Of a stretch of DNA of 64,000 bases, positions 2,120 to 33,041 are shown piece by piece (the stretch's first letter is position 1; the number at the start of each line of letters is the position of its first letter). The DNA lies in contig OZ250177.1 in assembly GCA_965238135.1 (NCBI GenBank), forward strand, positions 541,744 through 605,743, read 5' to 3'. The position numbers and the translations under genes are program-made. The notes below the pieces were generated by a model that had not been told where the DNA came from, did not search any database, and was given only the letters and a program-made list of their open reading frames with translations. This stretch comes from Candidatus Multivorans sp. (GTDB lineage: Bacteria > Acidobacteriota > Thermoanaerobaculia > Multivoradales > Multivoraceae).

Positions 2120-2281
2120 CACTCTTGTTTGGTCCCACCGGGTTGGCCCCACCGGGATGGCTCTGCGCCGCCTGGTGGGCGGCGCGCCGGCGGTTGCGCT
2201 TTACTCGGTCTTTACAAACGAAGGGGAGGATCGCGCGCCGTGACCGGAAGTAACGGGGCGCACACCAGAACGAGGGGCACA

Positions 2282-8051: not shown

Positions 8052-8090
8052 AGGTGGGGCTCCCGTCGTGTGGACGGGAAGCTGCGTCAG

Positions 8091-8240
8091 TTGGAGAAGG
8101 CGCTTGAGATCGACGCGGATCACCCGCGCGCTCTGCAGGTTCTTTTCCACAGCCTGGACGAAACTAGGAATTCCGGCTAACATTCTTTGTTTGGCCCCAC
8201 CGAGACGGCTCTTGCGCCGCCTGGTCATCGGCGCGACGGA
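8091..8240 (+). repeat. ~150-bp degenerate duplicate of the TPR-gene 3' end plus downstream leader (copy of 2030-2190)
   Basis: 8091-8180 encodes LEKALEIDADHPRALQVLFHSLDETRNSG*, paralogous to the TPR protein C-terminus LERALQIDPDHPRAGEILYSLGGNPEQLR*. It is followed by the shared motif ctaacaYtctttgtttggYcccaccg...ggctctKgcgccgcctggt in both copies. Roughly 75-80% identity. Confidence 0.75.
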
Positions 8241-8527
8241 GTTGCCTTGGTGGGACCCTGAGTCGGGCCGGTCCGGGTTGGACAAGTGCCTGACCGGGAG
8301 CGGCTTGGAGTCGAACGGGCAGTCGGAAGAATGATCGTCGCGGCCGTCGGCCGCGAGACGCCTCCGGGCTTCATCGGGTTTTTTCCATTCCCAGGGAGAA
8401 TCACCAGGGCGTGATCGGTTTTGTCCGATACGCCCGCAGGAGTATTGATCGTGTTTCCGTCCCAGGCTGTCCCGAGGGCGTGTGGATGGCTTGGTGGAAG
8501 GTCGACTAACTAAGTGGGGGGCAATAG

Positions 8528-17471: not shown

Positions 17472-19823
17472 ATGGACAAGCGAGATCTCTCAGAGCGCGA
17501 TATCTGCACGAAGTTCATCACGCCCGCCCTGCGCGGGGCCGGATGGGACGAGATGTCACAGCTTCGCGAGGAGGTGAGCTTCACCGATGGCCGCATCACC
17601 GTGCGAGGAAAGATGGTTTCGCGCGGAAAGCGGAAGCGCGCCGACTACATCCTCGACTTCAAGCCGAACATTCCGCTCGCGGTGATCGAGGCCAAGGACA
17701 ATACCCACAGCGTGGGCGACGGCATGCAGCAGGCCTTGGACTACGCCGGGACCCTGAACATCCCGTTCGCGTTCTCGTCGAACGGCGACGGCTTCGTGTT
17801 CCACGACCGCACGGGGGCCAGTACGCCCCGCGAGACGAACCTGCCGCTCGACGCGTTTCCGTCGCCGGCCGATCTGTGGGCGCGCTATCGGGCCTGGAAG
17901 GGCCTGACGCCGGAGGCCGAGAGGATCGTCCTCCAGGACTACTTCGAGGACCGTGGCGGCAAGACGCCGCGCTACTACCAGATCAACGCCGTCAACGCGA
18001 CGATCGAGGCCATCTCCAAGGGGCAGGACCGCATCCTGCTCGTCATGGCCACGGGCACGGGCAAGACGTACACCGCTTTCCAGATCATCTGGCGGCTGTG
18101 GAAGGCGCGGCGCAAGAAGCGCATCCTGTTCCTTGCCGACCGCAACGTGCTCATCGACCAGACGATCGCGAACGACTTTCGCCCGTTCGGCGGGGCCATG
18201 ACCAAGCTCTCGCGCGACATCGACGCCTCCTTCGAGGTGTATCTCGGCCTCTATCAGGCGATCACGGGGCCGGACGACCACCAGAAGGCGTTTCGGAAGT
18301 TCTCGCCGGAGTTCTTCGATCTGATCGTGATCGACGAATGCCACCGGGGAAGTGCAGCTGACGATTCGGCGTGGCGCGAGATCCTCGAGTACTTCTCCTC
18401 CGCAACCCAGATCGGCCTCACCGCCACGCCGAAGGAGACGAAGTATGTCTCCAACATCGACTACTTCGGGGAGCCCGTCTTCTCCTACTCCCTGAAACAG
18501 GGCATCCGCGACGGCTTCCTCGCGCCCTACAAGGTGGTCAAGGTCCACATCGACCGGGACGTCGAAGGCTACCGTCCGGAAAAGGGCCAGCTTGACCGCG
18601 ACGGAGAGGAGGTTGAGGACCGCATCTACAATGTCAGGGACTTCGATCGCACGCTCGTCATCGACGGGCGGACGAAGCTGGTGGCTGAGAAGGTCACGAC
18701 GTTTCTGCGGGAGAGCGGCGACCGCTTCCAGAAGGCGATCGTTTTCTGCGTCGATCAGGAGCACGCCGCCCGGATGCGCCAGGCGCTCGTCAACGAGAAT
18801 GCCGATCTTGTCGAGCGCAACGCACGGTATGTCATGCGGATCACGGGCGCGGACGAGGCTGGAAAGGCCGAACTGGGGAACTTCATCGATCCCGAATCGA
18901 GTCACCCGGTGCTCGTCACCACGTCGCGCCTGCTGTCCACCGGCGTCGATGTCCAGACGTGCCGGGTCATCGTGCTCGACCGGGAGGTAGGCTCGATGAC
19001 CGAGTTCAAGCAGATCGTCGGCCGCGGCACCCGAGTGCATGAGGACACCGGGAAGTTCTACTTCACGCTCATCGACTTCCGGAACGCGAGCGGCCACTTC
19101 GCGGACCCGGACTTCGACGGCGAGCCGGTGCAGATCTACGAACCAGGCGTGGGGGATCCGATCCTTCCTCCCGATACGCCCGAGGATGAAGACCTCGGTG
19201 AAGAGGAGATGGCCGCTATCGGGGGCGGCAACGGCCTGCCGCCCACGGAGACGCATCCCCTGAAGATCTTTGTTGATGGCATCGAGGCGACCATCGTCGC
19301 CGAGCGGGTCGAGTACCTCGACGAGCACGGCAAGCTCATCACCGAGTCGCTACGCGACTTCACGAGGAAGGCGCTGCGCAGGCGCTTCGCGAGCCTGGAC
19401 GACTTCCTGAACCGTTGGAATGCTGCGGAGCGCAAGCAGGCGATCATCGACGAGATGGCGGCCGAGGGCCTGCCACTTACTGCGATTGTCCCTGAATTGG
19501 GCAAGGATCTCGACCCCTTCGATCTCGTCTGCCACATCGCCTTCGACGTCAAGCCGCTAACCCGCCGGGAACGGGCCGAGAACGTCAGGAAACGGGACGT
19601 GTTCACGAAGTACGGAGGACAGGCCCGCGCCGTGCTCGACGCACTGCTCGACAAGTACGCCGACGAGGGCGTCATCAATCTCGACGACGCCAACGTGCTC
19701 AGGATTCCGCCGCTCGACAGTCTCGGCACCCCGGTCGAGCTCGTCCGCGCCTTCGGCGGAAAGCCCGGCTTCGAGCGGGCCGTGCGCGATCTTCAGTCGG
19801 CGCTCTACAGGGAGGTCGCCTAA
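17472..19823 (+). CDS. hsdR: Type I restriction-modification system, restriction (R) subunit HsdR
   Basis: N-terminal HsdR_N PD-(D/E)xK nuclease motif (DYILDF...IEAKD). SF2 helicase motifs I LVMATGTGKT, II DECHR, III LTATP, VI QIVGRGTR. GGGAGG RBS upstream. Confidence 0.9.
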   Translation: MDKRDLSERDICTKFITPALRGAGWDEMSQLREEVSFTDGRITVRGKMVSRGKRKRADYILDFKPNIPLAVIEAKDNTHSVGDGMQQALDYAGTLNIPFAFSSNGDGFVFHDRTGASTPRETNLPLDAFPSPADLWARYRAWKGLTPEAERIVLQDYFEDRGGKTPRYYQINAVNATIEAISKGQDRILLVMATGTGKTYTAFQIIWRLWKARRKKRILFLADRNVLIDQTIANDFRPFGGAMTKLSRDIDASFEVYLGLYQAITGPDDHQKAFRKFSPEFFDLIVIDECHRGSAADDSAWREILEYFSSATQIGLTATPKETKYVSNIDYFGEPVFSYSLKQGIRDGFLAPYKVVKVHIDRDVEGYRPEKGQLDRDGEEVEDRIYNVRDFDRTLVIDGRTKLVAEKVTTFLRESGDRFQKAIVFCVDQEHAARMRQALVNENADLVERNARYVMRITGADEAGKAELGNFIDPESSHPVLVTTSRLLSTGVDVQTCRVIVLDREVGSMTEFKQIVGRGTRVHEDTGKFYFTLIDFRNASGHFADPDFDGEPVQIYEPGVGDPILPPDTPEDEDLGEEEMAAIGGGNGLPPTETHPLKIFVDGIEATIVAERVEYLDEHGKLITESLRDFTRKALRRRFASLDDFLNRWNAAERKQAIIDEMAAEGLPLTAIVPELGKDLDPFDLVCHIAFDVKPLTRRERAENVRKRDVFTKYGGQARAVLDALLDKYADEGVINLDDANVLRIPPLDSLGTPVELVRAFGGKPGFERAVRDLQSALYREVA

Positions 19824-19826
19824 GAG

Positions 19827-21278
19827 ATGTCCGTCAGCACTCTGGTCAAGTCCATTCAGAACATCATGCGCCAGGACGCTGGGGTGGACGGCGACGCGCA
19901 GCGCATCAGCCAACTGTGCTGGATGTTCTTCCTCAAGATCATCGACGACCAGGACCAGGAACTCGAGCTCTTTGACGACGGCTACGGCTCGCCCGTCCCT
20001 GCAGATCTGCGATGGCGGAGCTGGGCGGCCGACCCGGAAGGCATCACCGGCGAAGAGCTGCTCGACTTCGTCAACGGCGATCTCTTTCCACAGCTCAAGG
20101 AACTCCCGCCCAGGGCAGGCCCTCGCGCGAACGTCGTGCGCGACGTGTTCGAGGACGCCTACAACTACATGAAGTCTGGTCAGTTGATGCGGCAGGTGGT
20201 CAACAAGATCAACAGCATCGACTTCAACAACCTGGCCGCCCGCCAGCACTTCGGCGACATCTACGAGCAGATTCTGAACGACCTGCAATCGGCCGGCAAC
20301 GCGGGTGAGTACTACACCCCGCGGGCCGTGACCACCTTCATGGCCCGGATGATCGACCCGAAGCCGGGCGAGATCCTGTTCGACCCGGCTTGCGGCACGG
20401 GCGGGTTCCTCACCTGCGCTATGCAGCACATGCGCGAGCGGTATGTGAAGCGGCCCGAGGACGAGGCGAGCATGCAGGTTTCGCTGCTCGCGGTGGAGAA
20501 GAAGCCGCTTCCCCACATGCTCGCCGTCACGAACATGCTGCTGCACGGCATCGAGGATCCGTCCTTCCTGCGCCACGACAACACCTTGGCGCGGCCCTAC
20601 ACCTCCTGGGGCCGCGACGAGCGCGTGGACATCGTGCTGACCAATCCGCCGTTCGGCGGCAAGGAGGAGGATGGCATTGAGTCGAACTTCCCACAGCACT
20701 TCCGAACGCGAGAGACGGCGGACCTGTTCCTGGCCCTGATCATCCGGCTACTCAAGCCTGGAGGCAGGGCCGCCGTCGTCCTGCCAGACGGCTCCCTGTT
20801 CGGCGAAGGCGTCAAGACGCGGCTCAAGGAGCACCTGATGAAGGAGTGCAACCTTCACACCATCGTGCGCCTGCCGAACTCGGTGTTTCGCCCCTACGCC
20901 TCGGTCGGAACGAACCTGCTGTTCTTCGAGAAGGGCGAGCCGACGAGGGACATCTGGTTCTGGGAGCATCTCGTACCCGAAGGCCAGAAGGCCTACTCCA
21001 TGACACGGCCCGTACGGGTGGAGCATCTCGACGACTGCGCCGATTGGTGGGGTGGGACGGAGCGCACCGGCCGGGAGGAGGGTGGCCGGGCCTGGAAGGT
21101 GAGCGCCGACGAGATCAAGGCGCGCGGCTACAACATCGACATCAAGAACCCTCATACCGAGGAGGAGGACCTTGGCGATCCCGAGACGCTTCTGGAGGAA
21201 CTGACGAGCGCCGAGGCTGAGGTGCTGTCGGTGCGGAGTGAGTTGAGGCGAATTCTGACTGAGGCGCTCCTACGGTGA
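19827..21278 (+). CDS. hsdM: Type I R-M N6-adenine DNA methyltransferase subunit HsdM
   Basis: Motif I FDPACGTGGFL and motif IV LTNPPFGG; HsdM N-terminal domain. Start is 4 nt after the hsdR stop. Confidence 0.92.
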   Translation: MSVSTLVKSIQNIMRQDAGVDGDAQRISQLCWMFFLKIIDDQDQELELFDDGYGSPVPADLRWRSWAADPEGITGEELLDFVNGDLFPQLKELPPRAGPRANVVRDVFEDAYNYMKSGQLMRQVVNKINSIDFNNLAARQHFGDIYEQILNDLQSAGNAGEYYTPRAVTTFMARMIDPKPGEILFDPACGTGGFLTCAMQHMRERYVKRPEDEASMQVSLLAVEKKPLPHMLAVTNMLLHGIEDPSFLRHDNTLARPYTSWGRDERVDIVLTNPPFGGKEEDGIESNFPQHFRTRETADLFLALIIRLLKPGGRAAVVLPDGSLFGEGVKTRLKEHLMKECNLHTIVRLPNSVFRPYASVGTNLLFFEKGEPTRDIWFWEHLVPEGQKAYSMTRPVRVEHLDDCADWWGGTERTGREEGGRAWKVSADEIKARGYNIDIKNPHTEEEDLGDPETLLEELTSAEAEVLSVRSELRRILTEALLR

Positions 21279-23044
21279 ACGCCGACCGCTTGCTCGCCCT
21301 CTACGACCGCGTGGCGGACGCGCCGGACGCCATCGGCCGCCTGAGCCGGTTCGTGCTTGACACCGCCGTGCGCGGCAAGCTCGTGAAGCAGGATCCGGCG
21401 GATGAACCGGCATCAGAGTTGCTGCGACGGATCGACGCCGAGAAAGCGCGAATGGTCAAGGCGGGAGAGATCAGAAAGCCCCGCAATCTGTCGACCGGTG
21501 AGGACTTGGTGGCACTCTTTGAGGTTCCGGCCAAATGGTGCTGGCGGCGCCTCGATACAATAGGAGCTATCGTTGGTGGTGGCACGCCATCGGCTGGCGA
21601 TCCTGCGAACTTCTCGGAGCCCGGAGAGGGCGTCGCGTGGTTGACACCCAAGGACCTCGGCAGCCTCGGAAGCTCATACATCGGCCGCGGTAGCCGCGAT
21701 CTCTCGGGAAAGGGCTTTCGTTCGTCATCGGCCACTCTCATGCCGACTGGGACTGTCCTCTTTTCAAGTCGAGCGCCGATCGGGTACGTCGCGATCGCTG
21801 CAAACCCGGTTGCGACGAATCAGGGGTTCAAATCCGTCGTCCCCTATGTTTCTGATTGTTCGAGGTACATAGCGCTGGTGATGCAGGCGTTTGGGCCTGC
21901 AATCGACGCCATGGCGTCAGGGACCACCTTCAAAGAGGTTTCGGGAAGGACTGTCGCCGGCGTTCCCTTCCCTCTCCCGACGCTCGCCGAGCAGCACCGC
22001 ATCGTCGCCAAGGTCGATGAACTCATGGCGCTGTGCGACCGTTTAGAGGAAGCTCGCGTCTCCCGGGAGGGCGCCCGCGACCGGCTGACGAGGGCCAGCC
22101 TGTCGCGCTTGGTTGCGGCAGAGGCAGAAGAAGCGCAGGCAGCTACGTTCCGGGTTCTTGCGCGTTTCACAGTCGATGCCCTTCCCGCGCTGACGGCCCG
22201 CGCCGACCAAGTCCAGGGCTTTCGCCAGACCATTCTCGGCCTCGCGGTCCGGGGAAGGCTGGTCGAGCAGGATCCCGCTGACAAACCGGCGTCGGAACTC
22301 CTGAAGCGGATCGCCGCCGAAAAGGCGCGAATGGTGGGGGCGGGGGCGATCCGGAAGCCACGCAGTCTGCCGAACGGTGAGGACTTGGCAGCACCGTTCG
22401 GGATTCCGGACACCTGGTGCTGGGACCGCCTCGATGCCATTGGAGCAATCGTCGGTGGTGGCACACCGTCTGCGAGCGATCACAAGAACTTTGCGCAATC
22501 GGGAGAGGGTATTCCGTGGCTCACGCCGAAAGACCTCGGCGGCCATGAAGACCTGTACATCGAACGCGGCAGCCGCGATCTGTCGACGAGTGGTCTGCGA
22601 TCGTCCTCGGCGACACTCATGCCTGCGGAAACAGTCCTTTTCAGTAGCCGTGCGCCGATAGGGTACGTGGCAATCGCGGCGAACCCAGTTGCCACCAATC
22701 AGGGCTTCAAGTCCATCGTCCCGTACGTGCCGGGCTGCTCCAGATTCATCGCCTTGGCGATGAGGGCGTTCGGGCCTGAGATCGCTGCCAGTGCTCCGGG
22801 GACGACATTCAAGGAGGTGTCAGGAAAGCTCGTCGCTGGCGTTCCCTTTCCTCTCCCGCCACTCGCCGAGCAGCACCGCATCGTCGCCAGGGTCGACGAA
22901 CTCATGGCGCTGTGCGACGGGCTGGAGGGAAGTCTTGCGACTGCGGACGACACGCGCGGCCGCCTGCTTGACTCTCTCCTCGATGAAGCGTTGGCCGCCG
23001 ACTGGGCCGCCACGGTCCAACACGTCGCGGAGTCTCAGCCATGA
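21275..23044 (+). CDS. hsdS: Type I R-M specificity subunit HsdS with two near-identical target-recognition halves
   Basis: Overlaps the hsdM stop (ATGA). Two ~290-aa halves, each with a TRD and the conserved LAEQHRIVA(K/R)VDELMALCD(R/G)LE spacer; halves are ~75-80% identical to each other. Confidence 0.88.
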   Translation: MNADRLLALYDRVADAPDAIGRLSRFVLDTAVRGKLVKQDPADEPASELLRRIDAEKARMVKAGEIRKPRNLSTGEDLVALFEVPAKWCWRRLDTIGAIVGGGTPSAGDPANFSEPGEGVAWLTPKDLGSLGSSYIGRGSRDLSGKGFRSSSATLMPTGTVLFSSRAPIGYVAIAANPVATNQGFKSVVPYVSDCSRYIALVMQAFGPAIDAMASGTTFKEVSGRTVAGVPFPLPTLAEQHRIVAKVDELMALCDRLEEARVSREGARDRLTRASLSRLVAAEAEEAQAATFRVLARFTVDALPALTARADQVQGFRQTILGLAVRGRLVEQDPADKPASELLKRIAAEKARMVGAGAIRKPRSLPNGEDLAAPFGIPDTWCWDRLDAIGAIVGGGTPSASDHKNFAQSGEGIPWLTPKDLGGHEDLYIERGSRDLSTSGLRSSSATLMPAETVLFSSRAPIGYVAIAANPVATNQGFKSIVPYVPGCSRFIALAMRAFGPEIAASAPGTTFKEVSGKLVAGVPFPLPPLAEQHRIVARVDELMALCDGLEGSLATADDTRGRLLDSLLDEALAADWAATVQHVAESQP

Positions 23045-24189
23045 CCCGCGTCCCGGTATCGTCCGAGATGCTGCGCTGGGCCTGCGAGCGCTCCGGTCGC
23101 GACGTCGCGGACCTCGCGGCCCGTGTTCCTCAGCTTCCGGCTTGGGTCCGAGGCGAGAGACAGCCGACGCTCAAACAGTTGGAGAGGCTGGCCACGGCTA
23201 CGCGGACGCCATTCGGTTATCTGTTCCTGACCGCGCCGCCGGAGGAGCGTCTTCCGGTTCCCGACTTTCGTACGGTGTGGGGTGCTTTCCGGGCGAGACC
23301 GACCCCCGACCTGCTGGACACGCTGTACAGCATGCAACGTCGCCAGGAGTGGCTCCGGGAGAGCTTGGTCGAGAGCGACGTGGGACCGCTGTCGTTCGCT
23401 GGAAGCGCCCGCCTGACGGATGACCCGGCCTCCGTGGGTCGGGAGATGCGGCGAGCACTCGGTCTCGATGACGGCTGGGCTGCGGAAGTGAGCACCTGGC
23501 AAGAGGCTGTGAGGGAGCTTCGCCGGGCCATTGAGCAGGTCGGCGTGATGGCGGTGATCAACGGAGTAGTCGGGAACAACACGAGCCGGAAGCTGAGCGT
23601 GGAGGAGTTTCGCGGCTTCGCGCTCACGGATCCTTACGCCCCGTTGATCTTCGTGAATGGCGCTGACGCCAAGTCGGCGCAGATGTTCACTCTCGCCCAC
23701 GAGTTGGCCCACATCTGGCTTGGCACGGAGGGGGTCTCCGGCTTCGAGTCCCTGTTCCCCGGCGGCTCGGACGTGGAGGACTGGTGCAACGCGGCCGCGG
23801 CTGAACTCCTCGTCCCTTCGGAGGAAGTGGCACCTCGTTGGAACGAGGTGAAGAGGGGACCAAGGCCGTTCGAGACGCTCGCCCGGGCGTTCAAGGTGAG
23901 TCCGGTTGTTGCCGCCCGCCGGGCCCTGGACCTGAGTCTTGTCGACCGCGACGCCTTTCGCGACTTCTACAAGGGGTACGTCAAGCGCGATCTCGCGAGT
24001 GGCGCGAGTTCCACCGGGGGCAACTTCTACAACAACCAGAACACCCGTGTCGGCGAGCTGTTCGCGTCCCACGTGCTCCGTGCGGCGATGGAGGGCCGAA
24101 TCGGGTTCAAGGAAGCCTACGACCTGACTGGCTTGCGTGGAGGAACCTTCCAGAAGTACGCGAGGCGACTGGGGGTGAATCTCCCATGA
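23041..24189 (+). CDS. HTH-domain plus ImmA/IrrE-family zinc metallopeptidase (COG2856-like)
   Basis: Overlaps the hsdS stop. Central HEXXH motif HELAHIWLG within an ImmA/IrrE-like region; N-terminal helix-turn-helix-like segment. Confidence 0.75.
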   Translation: MTRVPVSSEMLRWACERSGRDVADLAARVPQLPAWVRGERQPTLKQLERLATATRTPFGYLFLTAPPEERLPVPDFRTVWGAFRARPTPDLLDTLYSMQRRQEWLRESLVESDVGPLSFAGSARLTDDPASVGREMRRALGLDDGWAAEVSTWQEAVRELRRAIEQVGVMAVINGVVGNNTSRKLSVEEFRGFALTDPYAPLIFVNGADAKSAQMFTLAHELAHIWLGTEGVSGFESLFPGGSDVEDWCNAAAAELLVPSEEVAPRWNEVKRGPRPFETLARAFKVSPVVAARRALDLSLVDRDAFRDFYKGYVKRDLASGASSTGGNFYNNQNTRVGELFASHVLRAAMEGRIGFKEAYDLTGLRGGTFQKYARRLGVNLP

Positions 24190-24722
24190 CGAACGGCACG
24201 ACCTACCTCGTGGACTCGGATGTGTTCATCACGGCGAAGAACCTGTACTACGCGTTCGGCCTGTGCCCCGGGTTCTGGAAGAGCGTGCTGCACCACCATC
24301 GGAGGGGCCGGATTTTCAGCGTCGACAGGGTTCGCAGCGAACTCCTCGCGGGCACCGAGACAGAGGATCTCGTGCGGTGGGTCAAGGAAGAAGTTCCACG
24401 GGAGTTCTTTCTCCCGGTGGATGCCGACGCTGTCGTGAGTGCCTACACGGAGATCATGATGTGGGTGCAGCGCCACGGGAGGTACTTCGACCACGCCAAG
24501 GCGAAGTTCGCCACCGGAGCGGACGGCTGGTTGGTCGCCTGCGCACGGGTTCAGGGCGCCGCCGTGGTCACGAACGAACGGGAGGCGCCGGAGTCCCGGA
24601 GGGAGATCAAACTGCCCGACGTGTGCGAGGAGTTCGGTGTGGAGCACCCCAACGTCTTCGAGATGCTTCAGGCGTTGGACATCCAGTTCGACTGGACGGA
24701 GGACCGGAAGCCGGCGTCGTGA
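24186..24722 (+). CDS. DUF4411 family (PIN-like) protein, partner of the ImmA/IrrE peptidase
   Basis: ATGA overlap with the upstream gene. N-terminal YLVDSDVFITAKNLYYAFGLCPGFW motif characteristic of DUF4411. Confidence 0.7.
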   Translation: MTNGTTYLVDSDVFITAKNLYYAFGLCPGFWKSVLHHHRRGRIFSVDRVRSELLAGTETEDLVRWVKEEVPREFFLPVDADAVVSAYTEIMMWVQRHGRYFDHAKAKFATGADGWLVACARVQGAAVVTNEREAPESRREIKLPDVCEEFGVEHPNVFEMLQALDIQFDWTEDRKPAS

Positions 24723-24813
24723 GTCCGGTACGCGACGGTCGGTCCCGACCGGGCTTTGCGGAGTGGATTCGGACGTGTTCACTACGGCGAAGAACCTGCC
24801 GGCGGCTGGCTGA

Positions 24814-25095
24814 TCAGCCAGCGCGTTCGAAGCCGACCGTTAGCCGCGCGCCGGTCGCTCCCGCATAGCGCCGCAGCGTCGCGTACGACGGCGACACCCG
24901 GCCCCCTTCCAGCCGCGCGATCGCCGATTGGGTCGTGCCGAGCCGTTCGGCCAGTTCCGCCTGCGTCAGCTTCGCCGCCGTCCGGGCGCAGATCATCGCC
25001 TCGATCAGCGCATACTCGCTGTCGGCACTGGCGTACTCCTCCCGAAACGCCGGATCCTCCAGCAGGCGCGCCTTCAGATCCTTCAGCTTCGTCAT
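24814..25095 (-). CDS. XRE-family helix-turn-helix DNA-binding protein (HigA/antitoxin-like size)
   Basis: 93 aa; HTH segment LTQAELAERLGTTQSAIARLEGG. No adjacent toxin ORF recognised. Confidence 0.8.
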   Translation of the reverse strand: MTKLKDLKARLLEDPAFREEYASADSEYALIEAMICARTAAKLTQAELAERLGTTQSAIARLEGGRVSPSYATLRRYAGATGARLTVGFERAG

Positions 25096-25262
25096 GGCCT
25101 CACTTCGCGGTCCTCATAGCGTATCCGCTATGCCGACGCGCGTGGAATCCAGAGTCGGCCAACGCCCGACGCACCCGCCTGCGCCGGCCGGTATCGCAGC
25201 GGTTTGGAGGGACGTGCGCAGGGCGCCGCGTTAGCGCCTTCCGGCCTACCAACCTTGGCGGG

Positions 25263-25895
25263 CTACCGGATCTCGACGTACCGCGCCAGCCGTTCGACCT
25301 CGTCGTCGTCAACGTACTTGCCGATCTCGCGCCGGAACTGAGACATCGCCTCGTAGGGTCGGTACTCCTCGAACTCGTGCCGCATGCGTCGGCCGACGCC
25401 GGGGATGTTCAGGATGTCCTCGCCGGACGCCGTGTTCAGGTCGATGCGGGCGTACACGTACTGGGCGAGCCGCGTCACCTCATCGTCGTCGACGTACTTG
25501 CCGATTTCCCGGTGGAACTGGGCAAGCGCCGTGTAGGGGCGGTACTCCTCGAACTCGTGGGTCATCCGCCGGCCGACCCCCGGGATGAGCCCGATCTCCT
25601 CGGAGGTCGCGTCGTTCAGGTCGATGGGGACCCAGATCGCCCCGTAGACCTCGTCGTACCGGTCTTCGGTGACGTGGGCCGAGATCACGGCGTGGAGGTC
25701 GGCGGCCCGCAGGAAGGGGCGGCCGTCGAGCAACGCCTTGAGGGCGTCACCGTCGAGGCCGTCCACGTCGGCTAGCTCCTCCTCGCTGGCGAGGTTTGGG
25801 TTGAGCAGGCCGTGGTTGGCCCCGACCTGGGGTGTGATAGGTAGGGCGGCTAGGAACAGGGCTGATGTAGTCCACATTAGGGCCGAGCACTTCAT
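25263..25895 (-). CDS. Secreted ComEA-like protein with three tandem helix-hairpin-helix DNA-binding units
   Basis: Start at 25895. Signal peptide MKCSALMWTTSALFLAALPITPQVGA. Three repeated ~70-aa units containing (D/E)LN(D/T)A(S/T)xE(E/D)(I/L)xxIPGVGRRMxHEFEEYRPY. The last two units are ~85% identical at DNA level. Confidence 0.75.
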   Translation of the reverse strand: MKCSALMWTTSALFLAALPITPQVGANHGLLNPNLASEEELADVDGLDGDALKALLDGRPFLRAADLHAVISAHVTEDRYDEVYGAIWVPIDLNDATSEEIGLIPGVGRRMTHEFEEYRPYTALAQFHREIGKYVDDDEVTRLAQYVYARIDLNTASGEDILNIPGVGRRMRHEFEEYRPYEAMSQFRREIGKYVDDDEVERLARYVEIR

Positions 25896-25924
25896 CTGGA
25901 GATTCGTCCTCTTGCTGCTTCTTG

Positions 25925-26398
25925 CTAGTTGTGCGGTGTGGCGGGGTCCGCCGCGTCGCTGTCTTCTGACGTGGCGGCGGATCTGCCGGCCGCGGGGTGC
26001 TGGAGGGCGACGAGTATACCGAGCAGGCCGAGCAGGATCATGGCCCCCGGGGCCAGAGTCGGCATGGCGCCTCCCAGGCTCTCGTTGACCAGTTCGAGGC
26101 CGCTCGAGTTCGGATGAAGTTCCCGCTCGAACTCGACGTTGGACTGGAAGTGGAAGTAGACGCCGAGCAGACCGGCTGGGACGTAGGCGACTAGCAGAAT
26201 CCGGAAAGTCCGCACTGCCGCGACGGACGGACGCGCTGCCAACCACAAGCTGGCTGTGGTGCCAGCTGCCAGGAGCACGAGCGGGATCCACTGCTTGCTG
26301 TCCTCGTAGTGATCCAACAGGTACAACTCGGCAAGCAGACCGAGTGCCCCGAAGAGCAGGATGTACAACAGGTACCGTCGCCAGCCCTCGATGTTCAC
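25925..26398 (-). CDS. Small integral membrane protein (4 predicted TM helices), co-oriented upstream of the ComEA-like gene
   Basis: 157 aa with hydrophobic stretches YLLYILLFGALGLLAELYLL, WIPLVLLAAGTTASLWLAA, ILLVAYVPAGLLGVYF, AMILLGLLGILVAL. Gene-like GC3. Confidence 0.6.
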   Translation of the reverse strand: MNIEGWRRYLLYILLFGALGLLAELYLLDHYEDSKQWIPLVLLAAGTTASLWLAARPSVAAVRTFRILLVAYVPAGLLGVYFHFQSNVEFERELHPNSSGLELVNESLGGAMPTLAPGAMILLGLLGILVALQHPAAGRSAATSEDSDAADPATPHN

Positions 26399-26982
26399 GG
26401 TGTTCCGCGTCGCCCCTCGAACCGACCCTAGAGCCCGGCCGTGGATTTCCCGCTACGGCCGCGGATCCGCTTGCTGTGGTGTGACGCGTCACCCTGGTCG
26501 GACGAGGGAAGGCTCGGCCAACCGACAACGTCGAACCCGCGGAGGGGCCGGGGAACGCCACACTACCGCAGCCGTTCGGATCCATCGGAGAGGCATGTCG
26601 GGTGCTGCTGCCGGTGGCAGTTTCGGCCCCACCGGTCTGGGTGGCCTTGAAGTCTTCCCGCAGGGATCAACTCTTGACGGGAGCGACCCCGCCGGTGGAA
26701 GCCGGCGTATTGCCGGCGCGCCGCACCGGGGACCGGGGCCACGGGGTCGCTCCCGTCACGCTCTGGACGCATGTCGCGGCCGGGGCGTTTCATTCTCGGG
26801 AGGGGATCCACTGGTGAGAAGAGAAGACTCAGTTGCACGTTCCTGGAAGTCGCTCGGGCCGATTGGTGGAAGTGAGCGGCTGTTGTTGCCCTTCCGTCGC
26901 TGTACGGGGCCTGGCGCGGCTAGACTGTGGAACTGGACCGGAGCCGGGCGGCTGGGTTCTGGCGGCGAGAGGTAGACAGGGG

Positions 26983-27828
26983 ATGGACATTCGAGAGCGT
27001 CAGAATTGCCAGCGGTCGTTGGAGAGGCTGGTCGCCGTAGGTTGGCTCTATGGACGGGTCAAGAAGGTGGAAGGCTGGCGGCTGGTGTTCATAGTAGGCG
27101 TCGCGGGTCTGCTGCTGTCGGGTCTGGCCGTGGAAGCGGATGCCTACAGCCGAGTGGCGGCGATCGTCGTCGTCTTGCTCTGGTGCATAGACCAGGCGGT
27201 TCTGGTTGCATGCGCCGACAGGATGAAGGAAGAGGCGGCGGCGATTCAAGAAGACTTCGACTGTTTCGTCCTCGGCCTACCGTGGCCGGAGCACTGCGGT
27301 GTCGGGCGGCCGACGGATGACAGGGTGAGAGACTTGGCGACGATGGCAGGTGGGCGAGGCGAGCAGAGGGAGGAGCTGGCTGACTGGTACGGAAGGGACG
27401 GTATTCCCGAGGAACCGCTGTCAGCGCGGCTGTATTGCCAGAGAACCAACTGCCGGTGGGACGAACGACTGCGCAAAGAGTGGATCTGCGCCATCAGATC
27501 CTTCGCGGGCGGGTCGCTGGCTGTGGGCCTCGTTGTGGCAGCGCTGGCCGGCGTCTCGCTGCTCGGGGTGGTTCTTGCGGCGGCGGCGGGACTCAGGCTT
27601 GTTGCGTGGTTGGCGATGGAAGTCAGGGCTCAATCGGCGGCGAGGAAGCGTATGAAAGAGCTGCATGGCTTCCTGTCGCGGCCCGGCGCGCAGACCGGCA
27701 GGCTGACCCTTTGCGACTCCCGGCTCGTGCAGGCGCGACTCTTCGAGCACCGGCGGCTTAGCCCGACTGTGCCGGATTGGTTTTATCGGTTGAGGAAGAC
27801 GGATCACGAGGCGATGGAACCGGGTTGA
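26983..27828 (+). CDS. Membrane protein with 2TM + soluble linker + 2TM architecture (candidate pore-forming effector, SLATT/S-4TM-like)
   Basis: ATG at 26983. TM pairs LVFIVGVAGLLLSGLAVEA / VAAIVVVLLWCIDQAVLVACA and GGSLAVGLVVAALAGVSLLGVVLAAAAGLRLVAWLAMEV, separated by a ~90-aa soluble region; charged C-terminal tail. No catalytic motifs. Confidence 0.55.
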   Translation: MDIRERQNCQRSLERLVAVGWLYGRVKKVEGWRLVFIVGVAGLLLSGLAVEADAYSRVAAIVVVLLWCIDQAVLVACADRMKEEAAAIQEDFDCFVLGLPWPEHCGVGRPTDDRVRDLATMAGGRGEQREELADWYGRDGIPEEPLSARLYCQRTNCRWDERLRKEWICAIRSFAGGSLAVGLVVAALAGVSLLGVVLAAAAGLRLVAWLAMEVRAQSAARKRMKELHGFLSRPGAQTGRLTLCDSRLVQARLFEHRRLSPTVPDWFYRLRKTDHEAMEPG

Positions 27829-27950
27829 ATAGGCACCGTAGCCAACTGGCTGGCCGGACGTGGAAGCAGCCGTCGAGAAGGCCACGGTCTGGGCGCGGAG
27901 GGGCTTCGGATCGTGGAGCGTCCGCCGGTGTCTTCGAAGGGAAGGGTCGA

Positions 27951-28376
27951 CTACGTTCGTCGCTTGCGCAGGATGGAGTCCACGAAGCGGAGAACCGTGG
28001 CCCGTTCGTCGGCGTCGAGTTCCAGTATCTGTCGAACCAGCACGACGGTTGAGTTACGCCGCTGTGCGTCCGACGGGTCCCCGTCGGTGGGAACCCAATG
28101 TGCCCAGGCCGCTAAGGTCTGAAAGTTCAGCCCATAGAGGTCGGCTAGTTCCAGGAGCACGATCGGGTCGGGCTGTCTGATTAGGCCCCGTTCGATCTGG
28201 GACAGGTATGCGTTGGATCGCCCGATGCGTCGTTCTACCTCGCGAAGAGACAGTTGGTAGTGCAGGCGAGCGCGGCGCAGAACGCCACCCACCTGCGGAG
28301 GATCTTGGCGGTGAGTGCGATCTGGCTTAGCCGGGGACCGGGCGGTCGCTGATCTACGGGAAGCGTGATCGGTCAT
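27951..28376 (-). CDS. XRE-family HTH transcriptional regulator with C-terminal extension, divergent from the TRIP13-SMODS operon
   Basis: HTH segment LSLREVERRIGRSNAYLSQIERG followed by a ~70-aa C-terminal domain. Start uncertain (28376 or 28490). Confidence 0.65.
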   Translation of the reverse strand: MTDHASRRSATARSPAKPDRTHRQDPPQVGGVLRRARLHYQLSLREVERRIGRSNAYLSQIERGLIRQPDPIVLLELADLYGLNFQTLAAWAHWVPTDGDPSDAQRRNSTVVLVRQILELDADERATVLRFVDSILRKRRT

Positions 28377-28601
28377 GGTTCTGGGGCCGCTACGACCGAG
28401 GAGCCCGGGAGCCGCAGTGTGTGTGTGTCGAGCGACCCGGCGTTTCGGTTGTTCCGAGCGCGATCCTCTCGGTGCGAGAGGGGCTCGCATGGCTTCGCGG
28501 CTGTCCAGCGCAGGCGACGCTCGCCCTTCCGCCGCCGGGGGAGTTCCAGTCGGTGGAGCCGGGGGTTGCGGTCGATCGGAATGCGAAGTAGAGTTGCACC
28601 T

Positions 28602-29522
28602 ATGCAAACCAGAAGCGCAAATGGGCTGATGGCGGAGTCGGTACGCGTCGTGCGCGTGATGCCAGATCCGGCGTACGCGGGCCTATGGGACTCGATTGTA
28701 GTGGATGCCTCGGTAAAGGACCGGCTGCTCCGAGCGACAGTGTTGAATCTCCGGCTACGCGCCGAGCTGCCGTTCGAGACGACGGCGCTGCACGGGCTCG
28801 TCCTGCTGCATGGACCGCCAGGAACGGGCAAGACGACGTTGGCGCGCGGGCTGGCCCAGGAACTGGCGAAGATCACGGCGGACCGTAAGGCTCGACTGGT
28901 CGAGGTCAACCCGCATGGTCTCATGAGCGCCGAACATGGGGAGAGCCAACGAGCGGTAACGCAACTGCTTACAGAGTACGTGCCGAGCCTTGTTGACGAC
29001 GGGATGGCAACGGTGGTTCTCCTCGACGAGGTCGAGTCGATGGCCATCGCGAGGAGTGAAGCGTCGCTGGGCGCGAATCCAGCAGACGTGCATCGAGCGA
29101 CGGATGCAGTGCTGGCGGCGCTCGACTTGAATACGACGGAGGTCCCCAATTTGGTCTTCGTGGCGACGAGCAACTTCGTCGACGCGCTGGACGAGGCATT
29201 CTTGTCGCGGGCAGACGTCCATATCTGCGTCCCGGCGCCGGATTCTGCGGGGATCGTGGAGATTCTGAAGCACGCGTTTCGGTCGATGGCGCCGGCTTTT
29301 TCCTGCCTCGGCGAGTTGGCCTCCGACCCTCGACTCAAAGAGGTCGCAGGGCGTCTGGCGGGCGCGGACGGCCGACGAGTCCGCAAGACGATCATGGAAG
29401 CGATGTTAGGGCGCCAGGAGACGGTACTGGATCCGGGAAGCACAACGATCGATGATCTGCTCGCGGCGGCGACGCGGGTTATGGAGAACAGCGACATCGA
29501 GCATGGAAGCTCGGAGGGCTGA
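28602..29522 (+). CDS. TRIP13/Pch2-like AAA+ ATPase (CBASS Cap6-like)
   Basis: Walker A [23 protein letters not shown]. The blocks [69 protein letters not shown] align closely with conserved TRIP13 blocks ([22 protein letters not shown] / [21 protein letters not shown] / VLIDEVESL / [30 protein letters not shown]). Start could be 28581-28629. Confidence 0.8.
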   Translation: [306 protein letters not shown]

Positions 29523-29523
29523 A

Positions 29524-30018
29524 ATGGAGCGACAGAGGACAATCGCCGCGTCACCGGTTCGGAGCGCCGCCGAAGCGTGGGACGTTGTAACTACACTGAT
29601 CGCAGAGACGCTTGAGCGCAGCCCTGAGGTCCCGGATGGGAGCGTAGCCGAGGAGTTTGCGGCGCTGGAGGGGCTGGGCCCGGCTCTCATCGCGGCCGGG
29701 CATTTGGAATCGGACGGCCTGGTGCTCTGCGACGATGGCCTGCATGTGACGATTCGGGTCTTGACCGCGGATGCGGCACTCGCAGTCAAGGAGAATCTCA
29801 ATCCCGTGCCCGGTGGCGGGCGTGCTTCGGGTGCGTGGATCCTCTATCTACCTTCGCCCGGAGCACTCGAAACGAGCGTGGCCGGCGCGGCGAAGCGGTC
29901 TGCGCATCTATCTGTAGACGCACCGCCGAAGTCGGCGCCGTTGGCAAAGGGGAAGAAACGGGAGGCAGGTTCGGTCATTGATCTGGGCGCACTCCGCAAG
30001 GCGACATCGAAATGGTGA
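29524..30018 (+). CDS. Small protein of unknown function (164 aa), translationally coupled between TRIP13-like ATPase and SMODS; candidate HORMA-domain protein
   Basis: GGAGGG RBS overlapping the TRIP13 stop. No recognisable motifs; basic disordered C-terminal tail (PPKSAPLAKGKKREAGSVIDLGALRKATSKW). HORMA assignment is inferred from context only. Confidence 0.5.
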   Translation: MERQRTIAASPVRSAAEAWDVVTTLIAETLERSPEVPDGSVAEEFAALEGLGPALIAAGHLESDGLVLCDDGLHVTIRVLTADAALAVKENLNPVPGGGRASGAWILYLPSPGALETSVAGAAKRSAHLSVDAPPKSAPLAKGKKREAGSVIDLGALRKATSKW

Positions 30019-30518
30019 CATCGACCTCGGTCTCGACCTATACGCGCACTCATACGGCTACGCACTTGGCGGACGTCATTCTGGGCTCGATTGCCGACAT
30101 CTTGGGAACGCTTCGCATTGATCCCACGCGGCTGTTTGCGGATTGGGAGACGGATCAGGCGGCCATCTCGAACTGGATTGCGGAAGGCTCGCTCAAGTGC
30201 GTCGCACTCGAATGCCACCGCCCGGACGGAACGGTGAACCCGATCTTCGAGTTCCCGCTGTCGTACACGGGCACGGGGCCGGGGAATCGGAAGTTCACGG
30301 CTGATCGGGCCGCGCTGGCACGCTATCTGGCGAAGCTGCAGCTAGTGCCGGCTGGAACTACATATCGCCTCTTCTGCAGCTTCAATGGACCCCATTCGGT
30401 GCAGGCGGGATGGTCCCCTGGGACAAGGGCGTCCGTTGGGGGCCTGCGCTCGGTGAGCTTTGGGACCCTCGCTGCCGGACCGCACGCCGGCGCGGGAATG
30501 CGCTACTACCGAAAGTAG
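30012..30518 (+). CDS. Small protein of unknown function (168 aa), translationally coupled (ATGGTGA overlap); candidate HORMA-domain protein (Cap7-like size)
   Basis: Overlaps the previous ORF's stop by 7 nt. Gene-like codon usage. No sequence motif recognised. Confidence 0.5.
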   Translation: MVTSTSVSTYTRTHTATHLADVILGSIADILGTLRIDPTRLFADWETDQAAISNWIAEGSLKCVALECHRPDGTVNPIFEFPLSYTGTGPGNRKFTADRAALARYLAKLQLVPAGTTYRLFCSFNGPHSVQAGWSPGTRASVGGLRSVSFGTLAAGPHAGAGMRYYRK

Positions 30519-30526
30519 GTGAGAGG

Positions 30527-31384
30527 ATGAGCTACGTCGACGACGCGTTCGATAAGTTGAAGTCGAATCTCGAGATTACGAAGACCGAGAGCCACCAGGC
30601 GCAGATTCGGCACCAGTTGGTGCGCGAGCACATCGAGGCCTCGTGGGAGTTGGTGGAGCATTTTCTCACCGGCAGCTACAAGCGACACACCAAGACGAAG
30701 AAGCTGAAGGACGTCGACATATTCGTCGTCGTCGATCCAGAGGGGCCGCAGGCCGCATTGGCTGACGGTACGGGAACGGCGGCTGTGCTTGCGTTGCACG
30801 ACTTACTGGCCGAACGCTGGAACGATCTGGGCGCCGACGACAACGTGGTGACGATCCACTATGGCGACGAAGACGTCGCGTCGTACGAGGTCGCTCCGGT
30901 CTTCCCGCGAAGCGGTGGCGGCTATTCGATGCCCAACGGCGTGGCGTGGATGGACACCGACCCGCAGGAGCAAGCGGAGCTCGTGACGGTGAAGAACAAG
31001 GAGTGCGACGCGAAGTTCGTGCCCTTTGTGAAGATGGTCAAGGGAATCAACCGCGAGGCAGGAGACCCAATCGAGCCCGCGTTTCTGATGGAGGTGATGG
31101 CGCTGGACCTTGTGGTAGAGCCGTTTGGCCGGTACAGGGACGAGATCAGGTTCTACCTGGCTTCGGTCGCGGACCAGATTACCGACGACTGGCGGGATCC
31201 AGTCGGGCTTGGTCCGGACGTGAATGCCCGGATGGGGGCCCGCCGTCGGAAAGAGCTGTCGGAGATTGTGCGCGGGTGGCTGGGTGTCGCCGAGGAGGCG
31301 TTGCAGCTTGAATACGAAGGCAAAGAACGGGCGGCGGTAGAGGCGTGGCGCGAGCTGTTCGGCTGGCGCATGCCGAGGCCATGA
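30527..31384 (+). CDS. SMODS / CD-NTase-family nucleotidyltransferase (cGAS/DncV-like cyclic-oligonucleotide synthase)
   Basis: Hallmark pol-beta NTase active site GSYKRHTKTKKLKDVDIFVVVD (GS...[DE]h[DE]h) plus a downstream acidic triad residue in VTIHYGDEDVASYEVAPV. 285 aa. GGTGAGAGG RBS 8 nt after the preceding stop. Confidence 0.8.
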   Translation: MSYVDDAFDKLKSNLEITKTESHQAQIRHQLVREHIEASWELVEHFLTGSYKRHTKTKKLKDVDIFVVVDPEGPQAALADGTGTAAVLALHDLLAERWNDLGADDNVVTIHYGDEDVASYEVAPVFPRSGGGYSMPNGVAWMDTDPQEQAELVTVKNKECDAKFVPFVKMVKGINREAGDPIEPAFLMEVMALDLVVEPFGRYRDEIRFYLASVADQITDDWRDPVGLGPDVNARMGARRRKELSEIVRGWLGVAEEALQLEYEGKERAAVEAWRELFGWRMPRP

Positions 31385-31573
31385 GTTTCGAGTGCCTTCT
31401 ACAGACGCCCGGCCCCGACCGACCGTCATGTCCCACAAGTGCTTACATTGTCTGTTACTTCGCCAACTCCGAGCGGGAAGAAGTGAGCGCTCCCGTCCCA
31501 CCAACCCAGCAAAGCGAACGGCCGATGGGGACCTCTCCGCGGGCCCACCGCTGGCGGGTGCGCTGTACGGCGC

Positions 31574-33041
31574 TCACGGCGCCTCGCCCGCTACCGCCGC
31601 CTGTTCGTCGGCGAGCATGTTGCGGCGGTGGAGGACGTACGCCTTGATCAGCGCGACATCATCGCCGTCGAGGACCGGGGAGAAGTCGGGCATGCCGAGG
31701 TCGACAAGAGCGCCCTCGATCAGGGCGGCCTCGTAGGAGTCGAAGACGCGCTGCGACGACTCGCGCAGGTCGGGCGTGACGCCGCCGGAGACCGCGCCGT
31801 AGCCGTGGCAGACCAGGCAGTACTGGTTGAACAGCCGCCGCCCGGCGTCGATGTCCCTGGTCGAGGCGCCGTGCTCGACGCGGGTGACGCGCACCTCACG
31901 TCGCTCCTGCCGTTCGATCGGCTGGCCGGTGGCGCCCAGGGCATAAACGACGATGCGGCCCTCGCTTTCGACCGCCTGCCGGGCCGAGCGGGTGCCGACG
32001 GTGCCGAAGGCGCCGCCCCAGCCGGACATCACCGCGATGTACTGCGTGCCGCCGCTCTCGAAGGTGATCGGCGGCGCGTCCTCGGCCAGCATCTGACCCG
32101 AGAGGCCGGTGGCGTCGACGACTGCTTGAGGGATGTCCTCGGGTGCCGCGGGGCGCACGCCGAGGTTCCACTGGCCGGGGGTGTACTTGAAGTTCGGGTC
32201 CGGCACGTAGAAGTTCGCCATCTCCATCGCCGGGATGTAGACCAGCCCCGTTTGCGGGCTGAACGACATCGGATGCCAGTTGTGCCCGCCGAGTGGCCCG
32301 GGCGAGACGGCGACTGCCTGGTCGGTGTAGCGGGCGCCGGCCAGTTCGACCGGGCGGCCGGTGGCGAGGTCGACGTGACTGGCCCAGGTCACGGTGACGA
32401 ACTCCTCGGCCGAGATCAGCTCGCCGGTGCGGCGGTCGAGGACGTAGAAGAAGCCGTTCTTGGGCGCCTGCATCAGCACCTGGCGCACCCGGCCGTCAAT
32501 CGGCAGCTCGGCAAGCATGATCGGTTGGGTGGCGGTGTAGTCCCAGGTGTCGCCCGGCGTCGTCTGGTAGTGCCAGACGTGCTCGCCGGTGTCGGGGCGC
32601 AGCGCCACGATCGAGGACAGGAACAGGTTGTCGCCACCGCCGGGGCTGCGGATGTTCCGGTCCCACGGCGAGCCGTTGCCGACGCCGATGTAGAGCAGGT
32701 CGAGTTCGGGGTCGTAGACGATCGAGTCCCACACGGTGCCGCCGCCACCTGCGGTCCACCATTCGCCGGTCCAGGTCTCGGCGGCCATGCGCATCGCCTC
32801 GTTCTCGAAGCCGTCGGCCGGGTTGCCGGGCACGGTGTAGAAGCGCCACGCCAGCTCGCCGGTCTCGGCGTCGTAGGCGTCGACGTAGCCGCGCCCGCGG
32901 CACCGACCAGGGCCGCGTCGTCGACTCCGTAGGCGGCCTCCGCGCGACGGGCCGGCGGCTGGGAGAAGACGGAGGTTATACGACCAGAAACGCCGTGGCT
33001 GCCAAGCCGGCATGGGCGAGAAAGGTGCGCGATGGTCTCAT
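31574..33041 (-). pseudogene. PQQ-dependent quinohemoprotein alcohol dehydrogenase pseudogene (signal peptide joined to distal propeller + cytochrome c domain; internal deletion and at least two frameshifts)
   Basis: ATG at 33041 encodes MRPSRTFLAHAGLAATAFLVV then a stop. The frame then shifts to ...SQPPARRAEAAYGVDDAALVGAAGA, and again near 32887 to GYVDAYDAETGELAWRFYTVPG... through to a C-terminal CLVCH heme-binding cytochrome c domain. About 250 aa of the N-terminal propeller are absent relative to intact paralogs in this window. Confidence 0.7.

Follow-up and report, generated by a model that had tools for sequence, protein, structure and literature searches.

The 64,000-nucleotide stretch of Candidatus Multivorans sp. 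analyzed here (contig OZ250177.1 of assembly GCA_965238135.1, positions 541,744 to 605,743; hereafter the window, whose positions serve as coordinates throughout) carries, between 26983 and 31384, six genes that were mapped from an open reading frame (ORF) listing together with Pfam and PADLOC profile searches. Four of them form one plus-strand operon whose genes abut or overlap across 28602-31384: a Cap6/TRIP13 AAA+ ATPase gene (28602-29522; PADLOC TRIP13, 3.8e-110), a Cap8/HORMA3-like gene of 164 amino acids (aa) (29524-30018; PADLOC HORMA, 6.5e-35, and the precomputed Pfam assignment PF27322, Cap8), a Cap7/HORMA2-like gene (30012-30518, 168 aa; Pfam bacHORMA_2, 9e-22, and PADLOC HORMA, 5e-78) and a CdnD-like gene for a cGAS/DncV-like nucleotidyltransferase (CD-NTase; 30527-31384, 285 aa; SMODS, 3.6e-13, and PADLOC cyclase, 2e-89), called the cyclase below. 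Upstream of the operon lie a minus-strand gene for a 141-aa XRE/CapH-like protein with a helix-turn-helix (HTH) domain (28376-27951; HTH_3, E=4.9e-10) and a plus-strand gene for a 281-aa protein with four transmembrane (TM) segments (26983-27828; Pfam PF18159 and PADLOC), here named S4TM. The S4TM and HTH genes are convergent and separated by 122 bp. The HTH and TRIP13 genes are divergent, and their intergenic region (28377-28601) measures 225 bp, just as an earlier reading made from the letters of the window (the sequence-only reading) had described when it placed a divergent HTH gene between the 4-TM gene and the operon. The G+C content of the cassette is about 0.62-0.65, against 0.66-0.70 in the flanks. 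We consider it likely that the first two genes encode the membrane effector and the likely repressor of a self-contained six-gene Type III (two-HORMA) cassette of CBASS, the anti-phage signaling system based on cyclic oligonucleotides.

The S4TM protein fits the Pfam family PF18159, S_4TM ("SMODS-associating 4TM effector domain"), over its full length, with a score of 156 bits (cut-off 26.9; E=1.6e-45) and with residues 2-277 aligned to model positions 2-282 of 291. It is also matched by nine models of the PADLOC 4TM effector (best 2e-42), and PF18159 is carried by all 97 of its database homologues. A Pfam scan with E up to 0.1 gave no SLATT domain, and besides S_4TM only a sub-threshold match to RskA_C was found. 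Assignment to SLATT or to a housekeeping membrane family was therefore ruled out, as Pfam gives S_4TM only. The sequence-only reading had proposed a SLATT/S-4TM-type effector; the S_4TM part of this proposal is carried by the full-length Pfam and PADLOC matches, and the SLATT part has to be dropped, as no such model matched. The topology that it had described, two TM segments, a linker of about 90 aa, two further TM segments and a charged tail, is upheld both by hydropathy (TM segments near residues 34-52 and 58-76, plus a double one at 173-214; linker of 94 aa, 79-172; tail of 69 aa with 14 K/R and 8 D/E) and by an AlphaFold (AF2) model (pLDDT 85, pTM 0.82) with four helices of about 40 residues (10-49, 53-97, 145-189 and 193-231). 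The invariant residues of the family (Q7, N8, E90, F92, D93, W135, Y136, C152, Q153, W159, R247, Q250 and R257) are grouped in three places, namely the N-terminal helix, linker and tail, and this clustering is consistent with a conserved soluble module that may serve in sensing. S4TM is not, as had been supposed, the only membrane-protein gene near the cyclase operon, because a 157-aa hydrophobic ORF is present at 25925-26398 (minus strand). This ORF is unrelated to the 4-TM gene and is absent from all of the related loci.

A scan for S4TM with one genome per species yielded 34 loci (denoted by L numbers), onto each of which the six window proteins were mapped; genes of the related loci were detected by tblastn and simple ORF heuristics, and the number of loci sampled had an upper limit. 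The layout of the window, that is, S4TM on the plus strand, HTH on the minus strand and TRIP13, Cap8, Cap7 and cyclase on the plus strand, was found in at least 13 loci from several phyla. L001-L009, from metagenome-assembled genomes of Thermoanaerobaculia, Gemmatimonadetes, Ca. Multivorans, Ca. Marinacidobacterium, Spirochaetia, Pseudomonadales and Azotimanducaceae, have exactly this layout and orientation, with amino-acid identities ranging from 47 to 86%, and three further loci (L039, L040 and L119) share the layout. The S4TM ORFs in the window-type loci are intact (279-287 aa). None of the genes flanking the cassette in the window recurs in the related loci, and the flanks differ at every locus; because of this, and because the DNA upstream of S4TM does not align, the mobile unit is precisely the six genes. 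This inheritance as a block, together with the S_4TM match, supports the proposal that the 4-TM protein is the effector of the operon.

A SMODS/CD-NTase gene is adjacent to S_4TM, or in its cassette, at 31 of the 34 genome loci. The three exceptions are a locus cut by the contig end (L010), a degenerate locus with only a frameshifted S4TM and the HTH gene (L021) and an unusual fusion (L034). At five loci (L018, L026 and L028-L030), tblastn with the window cyclase was negative, yet Pfam finds a SMODS gene alongside S_4TM. A wide occurrence of S_4TM homologues away from any nucleotidyltransferase, which the sequence-only reading had named as the outcome that would speak against an effector, was thus not what the loci showed.

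The position of the effector gene is fluid. It lies inverted behind the HTH gene in the window type, follows the HTH gene co-directionally in L022, L024, L036 and L042, where the two form an HTH-S4TM operon, and follows the cyclase in L044 and L050; in L013, cyclase, HTH and S4TM lie on one strand. S4TM was not detected in L038, L041, L046 and L096. S_4TM is located directly 3' of the cyclase in L011-L020, L042 and L120, and distant S_4TM proteins (24-39% identical) directly follow the cyclase in two-gene, Type I-like operons. The nearest relatives of S4TM outside the cassette are those of L042 and L120 (51-53% identical), located after a Type I cyclase of 290 aa that has only about 21% identity to the window cyclase. 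A Type I cyclase-4TM pair of this sort is the probable source of S4TM. The sequence-only reading had called an effector encoded across a divergent regulator atypical for CBASS. The position itself is confirmed; however, it is no one-off, being conserved and horizontally spread, with sister arrangements. In the co-directional HTH-S4TM type, one operator region could serve both divergent operons, and the effector of the window type would then have escaped from the operator-controlled unit.

Several of these loci have peculiarities of their own. In L042, a complete Type I cyclase-S4TM pair abuts the cyclase end of a Type III cassette (2840-4548 and 8001-9379), and that cassette has its own S4TM after the HTH gene, only 29% identical. 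L022 (3336-8760) and L024 (3338-8577) carry a second tandem TRIP13-Cap8-Cap7-cyclase copy in which TRIP13 is truncated. Directly after the HTH gene, L051 has a gene for a SIR2-Piwi (short Argonaute-like) protein (1255-4551), L046 a Type III restriction-modification (R-M) pair (8421-12949) and L038 an EcoRII-like R-M system (8726-11660). In the window-type locus L119, a serine recombinase (Resolvase) gene (5061-6014) overlaps the S4TM start codon by 14 nt, which may have a bearing on inversion or mobilization of the effector gene.

In the AF2 model of the HTH protein, the N-terminal residues 1-24 are disordered, residues 29-91 form an XRE domain of five helices, and 101-118 and 122-140 make up a hairpin at the C-terminus; the two helices of this hairpin bear out the C-terminal extension noted from the sequence. 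The family includes 312 homologues with a mean column identity of 68%, and the HTH domain is nearly invariant. A metagenome scan split the relatives into two groups with a boundary at about 44% identity. Homologues above it are always divergent from a TRIP13-Cap8-Cap7-cyclase operon (including those in L036-L051 and L096), and this linkage is kept wherever the effector sits, whether directly after the HTH gene, after the cyclase, or absent. Among the homologues with 32-43% identity, whose alignment extends through the C-terminal domain, every HTH gene has after it an M78/IrrE-type peptidase gene that overlaps it and matches capP (1e-13 to 1e-17). Such CapH/CapP-like pairs were seen in other contexts in L061, L070, L073, L081, L088, L103, L113 and L118; in L088, an AAA ATPase gene follows the HTH-M78 pair.

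Sequence and fold searches with the HTH protein returned generic XRE repressors only (SinR, RghR, ClgR, BldD, DdrO and a phage repressor). The PADLOC capH model matches the window protein weakly (E=0.0036, residues 33-134); it is matched by 21 of 24 family members (E<=0.01, best 1.5e-5), the C-terminal part included. The solved N-terminal domain of CapH (7T5U) was recovered at E=0.95, behind SinR, ClgR and DdrO. At 23 related CBASS loci, nine diverse M78 queries detected no M78 peptidase gene, either within the cassette or in the flanking DNA retrieved (up to 8-10 kb), and the only M78 gene of the window (23041-24189) is not conserved in the related loci. Since the flanks of the 23 loci have no peptidase gene and the distant relatives have one, the window protein is best described as a CapH-like repressor minus its CapP partner. 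The regulators CapW (WYL/WCX) and CapS (STAS), the latter compared by its published architecture (PMC13373217), were also considered as identities for the protein, as were other known CBASS regulators, and ruled out on domain content, as it has HTH_3-type domains only.

The only conserved non-coding DNA of the cassette is an element at the TRIP13 start. It comprises a -35-like hexamer, TTGCGG (28566-28571, plus strand), and two 17-bp palindromes, O1 (TGCGAAGTAGAGTTGCA, 28582-28598), which encloses the -10 hexamer TAGAGT (28589-28594), and O2 (TGCAAACCAGAAGCGCA, 28603-28619), which starts at the second base of the ATG at 28602. The sigma-70-like geometry of the promoter for the TRIP13 operon (TTGnnn, a 17-bp spacer, TAnnnT, 7 nt, ATG) is kept in 12 loci, with an 18-bp spacer in one of them, and the generic pattern TTGnnn-17-TAnnnT-7-ATG occurs once in the 64-kb window. 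O1 and O2 share the consensus TGCRA-N7-TYGCA, and their starts are 21 bp apart, equal to two helical turns. The exact consensus has two matches in 64 kb, both within the 225-bp gap, against 0.23 expected. The second of these is O3 (28473-28489), an exact palindrome TGCGA-N7-TCGCA and candidate auto-operator located 97 bp upstream of the start codon of the HTH gene; it was seen only in this window, and L001 keeps a palindrome with other half-sites. The tandem O1/O2 pair scores at least 12/16 in all 26 of the CBASS loci, variant arrangements included. In a random control, nine of 2000 random 220-nt window segments reached 12/16, and five of these nine scored 15 like the real site; we take the five to be overlaps of the real site. 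In L004-L007, the HTH-TRIP13 gaps are 465-619 bp, two to three times that of the window, and the promoter/operator block stays at the TRIP13 start. The half-site of the L050/L051 clade is TGCTA instead, and there the predicted recognition helix reads PNPHLSQ in place of SNAYLSQ.

We read O1 and O2 as candidate operators of the HTH protein. Their features fit a dimer of dimers that would occlude RNA polymerase, and a repressor function for the HTH protein fits its co-travel with the operon and the palindromes on the TRIP13 promoter. The sequence-only reading had suggested a repressor controlling both arms of the system. For the TRIP13 arm, this agrees with the operator-like palindromes on the promoter; the effector arm has no conserved upstream DNA, and there the suggestion fails. 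A shared operator or promoter upstream of S4TM was ruled out, as the upstream DNA is unaligned and has no operator matches. Which gene lies upstream of S4TM, and in which orientation, varies; the gap to it is usually 200-600 bp. In the window, this non-coding gap is 585 bp and has a perfect 17-nt inverted repeat (TGACGGGAGCGACCCCG / CGGGGTCGCTCCCGTCA) around a 50-nt branched loop (26675-26758), which folds at -67 kcal/mol (z=-3.7) and is present in a single copy in the window; the S4TM-upstream DNA of the related loci is unrelated to this region. The convergent gap between S4TM and HTH is not conserved in sequence between loci, folds no better than shuffled sequence (z=-0.35) and gave nothing in a terminator scan, and an Rfam search of 22000-32000 found no RNA family near threshold. 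Seven loci conserve an operator-like TGCGA-N7-CTGCA that falls within the coding sequence of Cap8 (29728-29744); it was set aside as an operator, its conservation being probably protein-coding (LCDDGLH).

No Shine-Dalgarno sequence precedes the ATG at 28602. This ATG is conserved, and several loci have no other in-frame ATG. In the 14 loci inspected by eye, A precedes the TGC of O2; the base in the corresponding position ahead of O1 varies. Because the ATG lies 7 nt after the -10 hexamer, has no Shine-Dalgarno sequence and is conserved, we infer that the TRIP13 mRNA is leaderless and that translation probably starts at 28602. In a sister clade (L041, L042 and L044-L046), O2 holds a Shine-Dalgarno sequence and the ATG comes after it. 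The HTH gene is missing from the gene calls for the 4.45-Mb source contig in ENA (ERZ26167216), which put the TRIP13 start at 28629. Annotation pipelines can overlook the regulator gene as well as the true start of TRIP13.

The best solved relatives of the core proteins are 6P82/6P8U ("Nucleotidyltransferase", 1e-38) for the cyclase, 6P8R/6P8S (2.9e-17; 6P8R is a 'HORMA domain containing protein') for Cap7 and 6P8P (E=5e-5), deposited as 'Uncharacterized protein', for Cap8. For TRIP13, too, the best solved relatives are chains of this series. We take 6P82/6P8U, 6P8R and 6P8P to be CdnD, HORMA2 and HORMA3 of the Type III CBASS of P. aeruginosa. Ye et al. are said to have shown in 2020 that this system has the nuclease NucC as effector and cyclic tri-AMP as signal. 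We presume that the sensing and reset logic of the P. aeruginosa system (CdnD, HORMA2, HORMA3, TRIP13 and NucC) is the same in the cassette of the window. In contrast to that system, the effector here is a 4-TM membrane protein, TRIP13 comes first and the cyclase last, the effector is encoded outside the operon, beyond a divergent regulator gene, and there is a dedicated HTH repressor.

Among known regulators, the HTH protein resembles CapH of the CapH+CapP pair (E. coli MS115-1; bioRxiv 10.1101/2022.04.27.489752) in its XRE HTH followed by a C-terminal oligomerization domain, in the position of its gene, upstream of and divergent from the CBASS core genes in all loci with the cassette, in the weak but consistent match of the capH model and in the pairing of distant relatives with CapP-like peptidases. 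However, the cassette and its flanks have no CapP gene, and 7T5U matches only at E=0.95. XRE repressors of the SinR, DdrO and ImmR types also have an HTH followed by a helical oligomerization tail; here the similarity is of the generic XRE kind only (Foldseek E 1e-3 or worse, TM about 0.4), and no SinI-like or IrrE-like partner of the window protein is encoded nearby. As for the effector, Type I CdnD-4TM operons such as EcCdnD12-4TM, whose effector likewise has four predicted TM segments, defend E. coli against phages (bioRxiv 10.1101/2023.05.21.541620), so that a clade-D-like cyclase driving a 4-TM effector is plausible. Unlike these operons, the window has a cyclase that would be regulated by HORMA and TRIP13 and is about 21% identical to the Type I cyclases, and an effector gene that is not co-transcribed.

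The following path is drawn by analogy with characterized Type III systems, with control steps suggested by the sequence. The two HORMA proteins Cap7 and Cap8 would sense infection and activate the CdnD-like cyclase, whose cyclic oligonucleotide would bind the cytoplasmic linker/tail domain of S4TM. S4TM would then compromise the inner membrane, so that the infection is aborted, and TRIP13 would reset the HORMA proteins. The XRE/CapH-like protein is predicted to bind O1 and O2, probably as two dimers joined by way of its C-terminal helical hairpin, and thereby to cover the -10 box and the start of transcription and translation of the putative leaderless TRIP13-Cap8-Cap7-cyclase mRNA. Its binding would keep the sensor/cyclase arm low, and the HTH gene may be under autoregulation as well. 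Transcription of the effector gene would come from locus-specific upstream DNA, outside the controlled unit; because of this position, the effector would already be present and production of the signal would be the gated step. We further raise, tentatively and as a possibility rather than an expectation, a distinct CBASS logic in which the lethal membrane effector is uncoupled from the operon and constitutive, in which gating is confined to the sensor/cyclase arm and exerted by a CapH-derived repressor, one without its former CapP protease, on twin operators over a leaderless promoter, and in which the relieving signal is other than the single-stranded DNA sensed by CapP. If this is true, candidate signals are a phage anti-repressor, host proteolysis via the disordered N-terminus, or direct sensing.

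Several observations weigh against this interpretation. Foldseek with the S4TM model found no solved structure alike (best E=0.74), and, the fold having no solved relative, the pore mechanism is taken solely from the S_4TM family annotation. Compatibility of S4TM with the ligand of the window cyclase is an assumption, because the nearest S4TM outside the cassette is paired with a different, Type I cyclase. Directly 5' of the S4TM start codon, the loci share no alignable DNA, and the pattern TTGnnn-N16-18-TAnnnT is present there in only two of 12 loci, so that no conserved promoter for the effector emerges. The link between the HTH protein and the palindromes is sequence-derived only. A consensus promoter scan of 26300-28700 found nothing, and the -35 and -10 boxes of the TRIP13 promoter match the consensus only partly. 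As for the promoter of the HTH gene itself, a CTAGTGTG/GCGCAAG-like stretch is present in some loci, is not general, and defines none. The source annotation, with its TRIP13 start at the ATG 28629, disagrees with a leaderless start at 28602.

One alternative for the control of the operon is that the HTH protein is a true CapH, and that an IrrE/CapP-type metallopeptidase acting in trans cleaves the first helix of its C-terminal domain after DNA damage and so de-represses the operon. The candidate in the window would be the product of the HTH-M78 fusion gene 4 kb upstream, which matches capP at 7e-13. The capH matches across the family and the M78 genes overlapping the distant homologues agree with this idea, as do the invariant L113 and nearly invariant R115 in that helix, given that CapP cuts CapH at F82|R83 in the equivalent helix. 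However, the conservation of the Leu and Arg may only reflect a dimer interface, no M78 gene was found within 8-10 kb of the 23 CBASS loci with the nine queries, and the M78 gene of the window is not conserved and, with DUF4411, stands directly after a Type I R-M operon, more likely as a separate module. We regard cleavage in trans as unlikely. The element at the TRIP13 start could instead be a promoter or 5' mRNA feature for another factor, the HTH protein regulating only itself or the effector, for example as an antitoxin-like partner to S4TM in the variants in which the two share an operon. In keeping with this, binding of the HTH protein to the element is a prediction only, part of the element is inside coding sequence, and HTH and S4TM form a two-gene operon at four loci. 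Against it stand three traits of the element that are typical of operators for HTH dimers (symmetry of the palindromes, a length of 17 bp and phasing by 21 bp), the presence of the element wherever the HTH gene is, the covariation of the half-site with the recognition helix, and the absence of any Rfam match in 22000-32000. We think this explanation quite improbable.

The effector itself could be a stranded remnant of a Type I cyclase-4TM pair beside a Type III operon that lacks an effector, and not be wired into that operon at all. In line with this, the S4TM genes of L042 and L120 are located directly behind a Type I cyclase, and the L042 pair abuts a Type III cassette with its own S4TM; furthermore, the window S4TM lacks a conserved promoter and is oriented towards the HTH gene, and L021 retains only a frameshifted S4TM and the HTH gene. 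A stranded gene is hard to reconcile with the inheritance of S4TM, HTH and the four core genes as a block in at least 13 loci from several phyla, with the intact S4TM ORFs, with the finding of no other effector in these cassettes, and with the sister arrangements, which place S4TM after the HTH gene or the cyclase of the same operon type. For these reasons we consider a remnant very unlikely, and favor an effector and a likely repressor that belong to the six-gene cassette.

The effector, cyclase, HORMA and TRIP13 families of the cassette are known, and once profile searches are available, calling the locus a Type III CBASS that has a 4-TM effector is a routine matter. Regulators of CBASS in the literature are CapW, CapH+CapP and CapK+CapS, and our literature search found no paper combining CBASS, HORMA and XRE. 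Three features appear to be undescribed in the literature searched: a lone CapH-like repressor conserved with a CBASS operon and having no CapP partner, a sharply delimited control region in which a phased pair of 17-bp palindromes overlies a promoter with its -10 box 7 nt from the start codon, and an effector gene outside the regulated operon. The cassette offers a compact, testable system for asking whether the effector and the sensor of a CBASS must be co-regulated, and the same arrangement poses the question of which signal lifts repression without a protease.

The cassette sits in a defense island, after a Type I R-M operon (17472-23044; HsdR, 17472-19823; HsdM, 19827-21278; HsdS, 21275-23044) that runs straight into the gene for the HTH-M78 peptidase fusion (23041-24189); the DUF4411 gene (24189-24722) follows the latter, and the two form a pair (23041-24722). 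A small stand-alone XRE HTH gene (93 aa) is located at 24814-25095 on the minus strand, and no obvious toxin partner was called adjacent to it. Farther away, at 40359-42206 on the minus strand, a gene for a 615-aa AAA_15/AAA_21 ATPase with an OLD/AbiEii-like N-terminus may be another defense gene.

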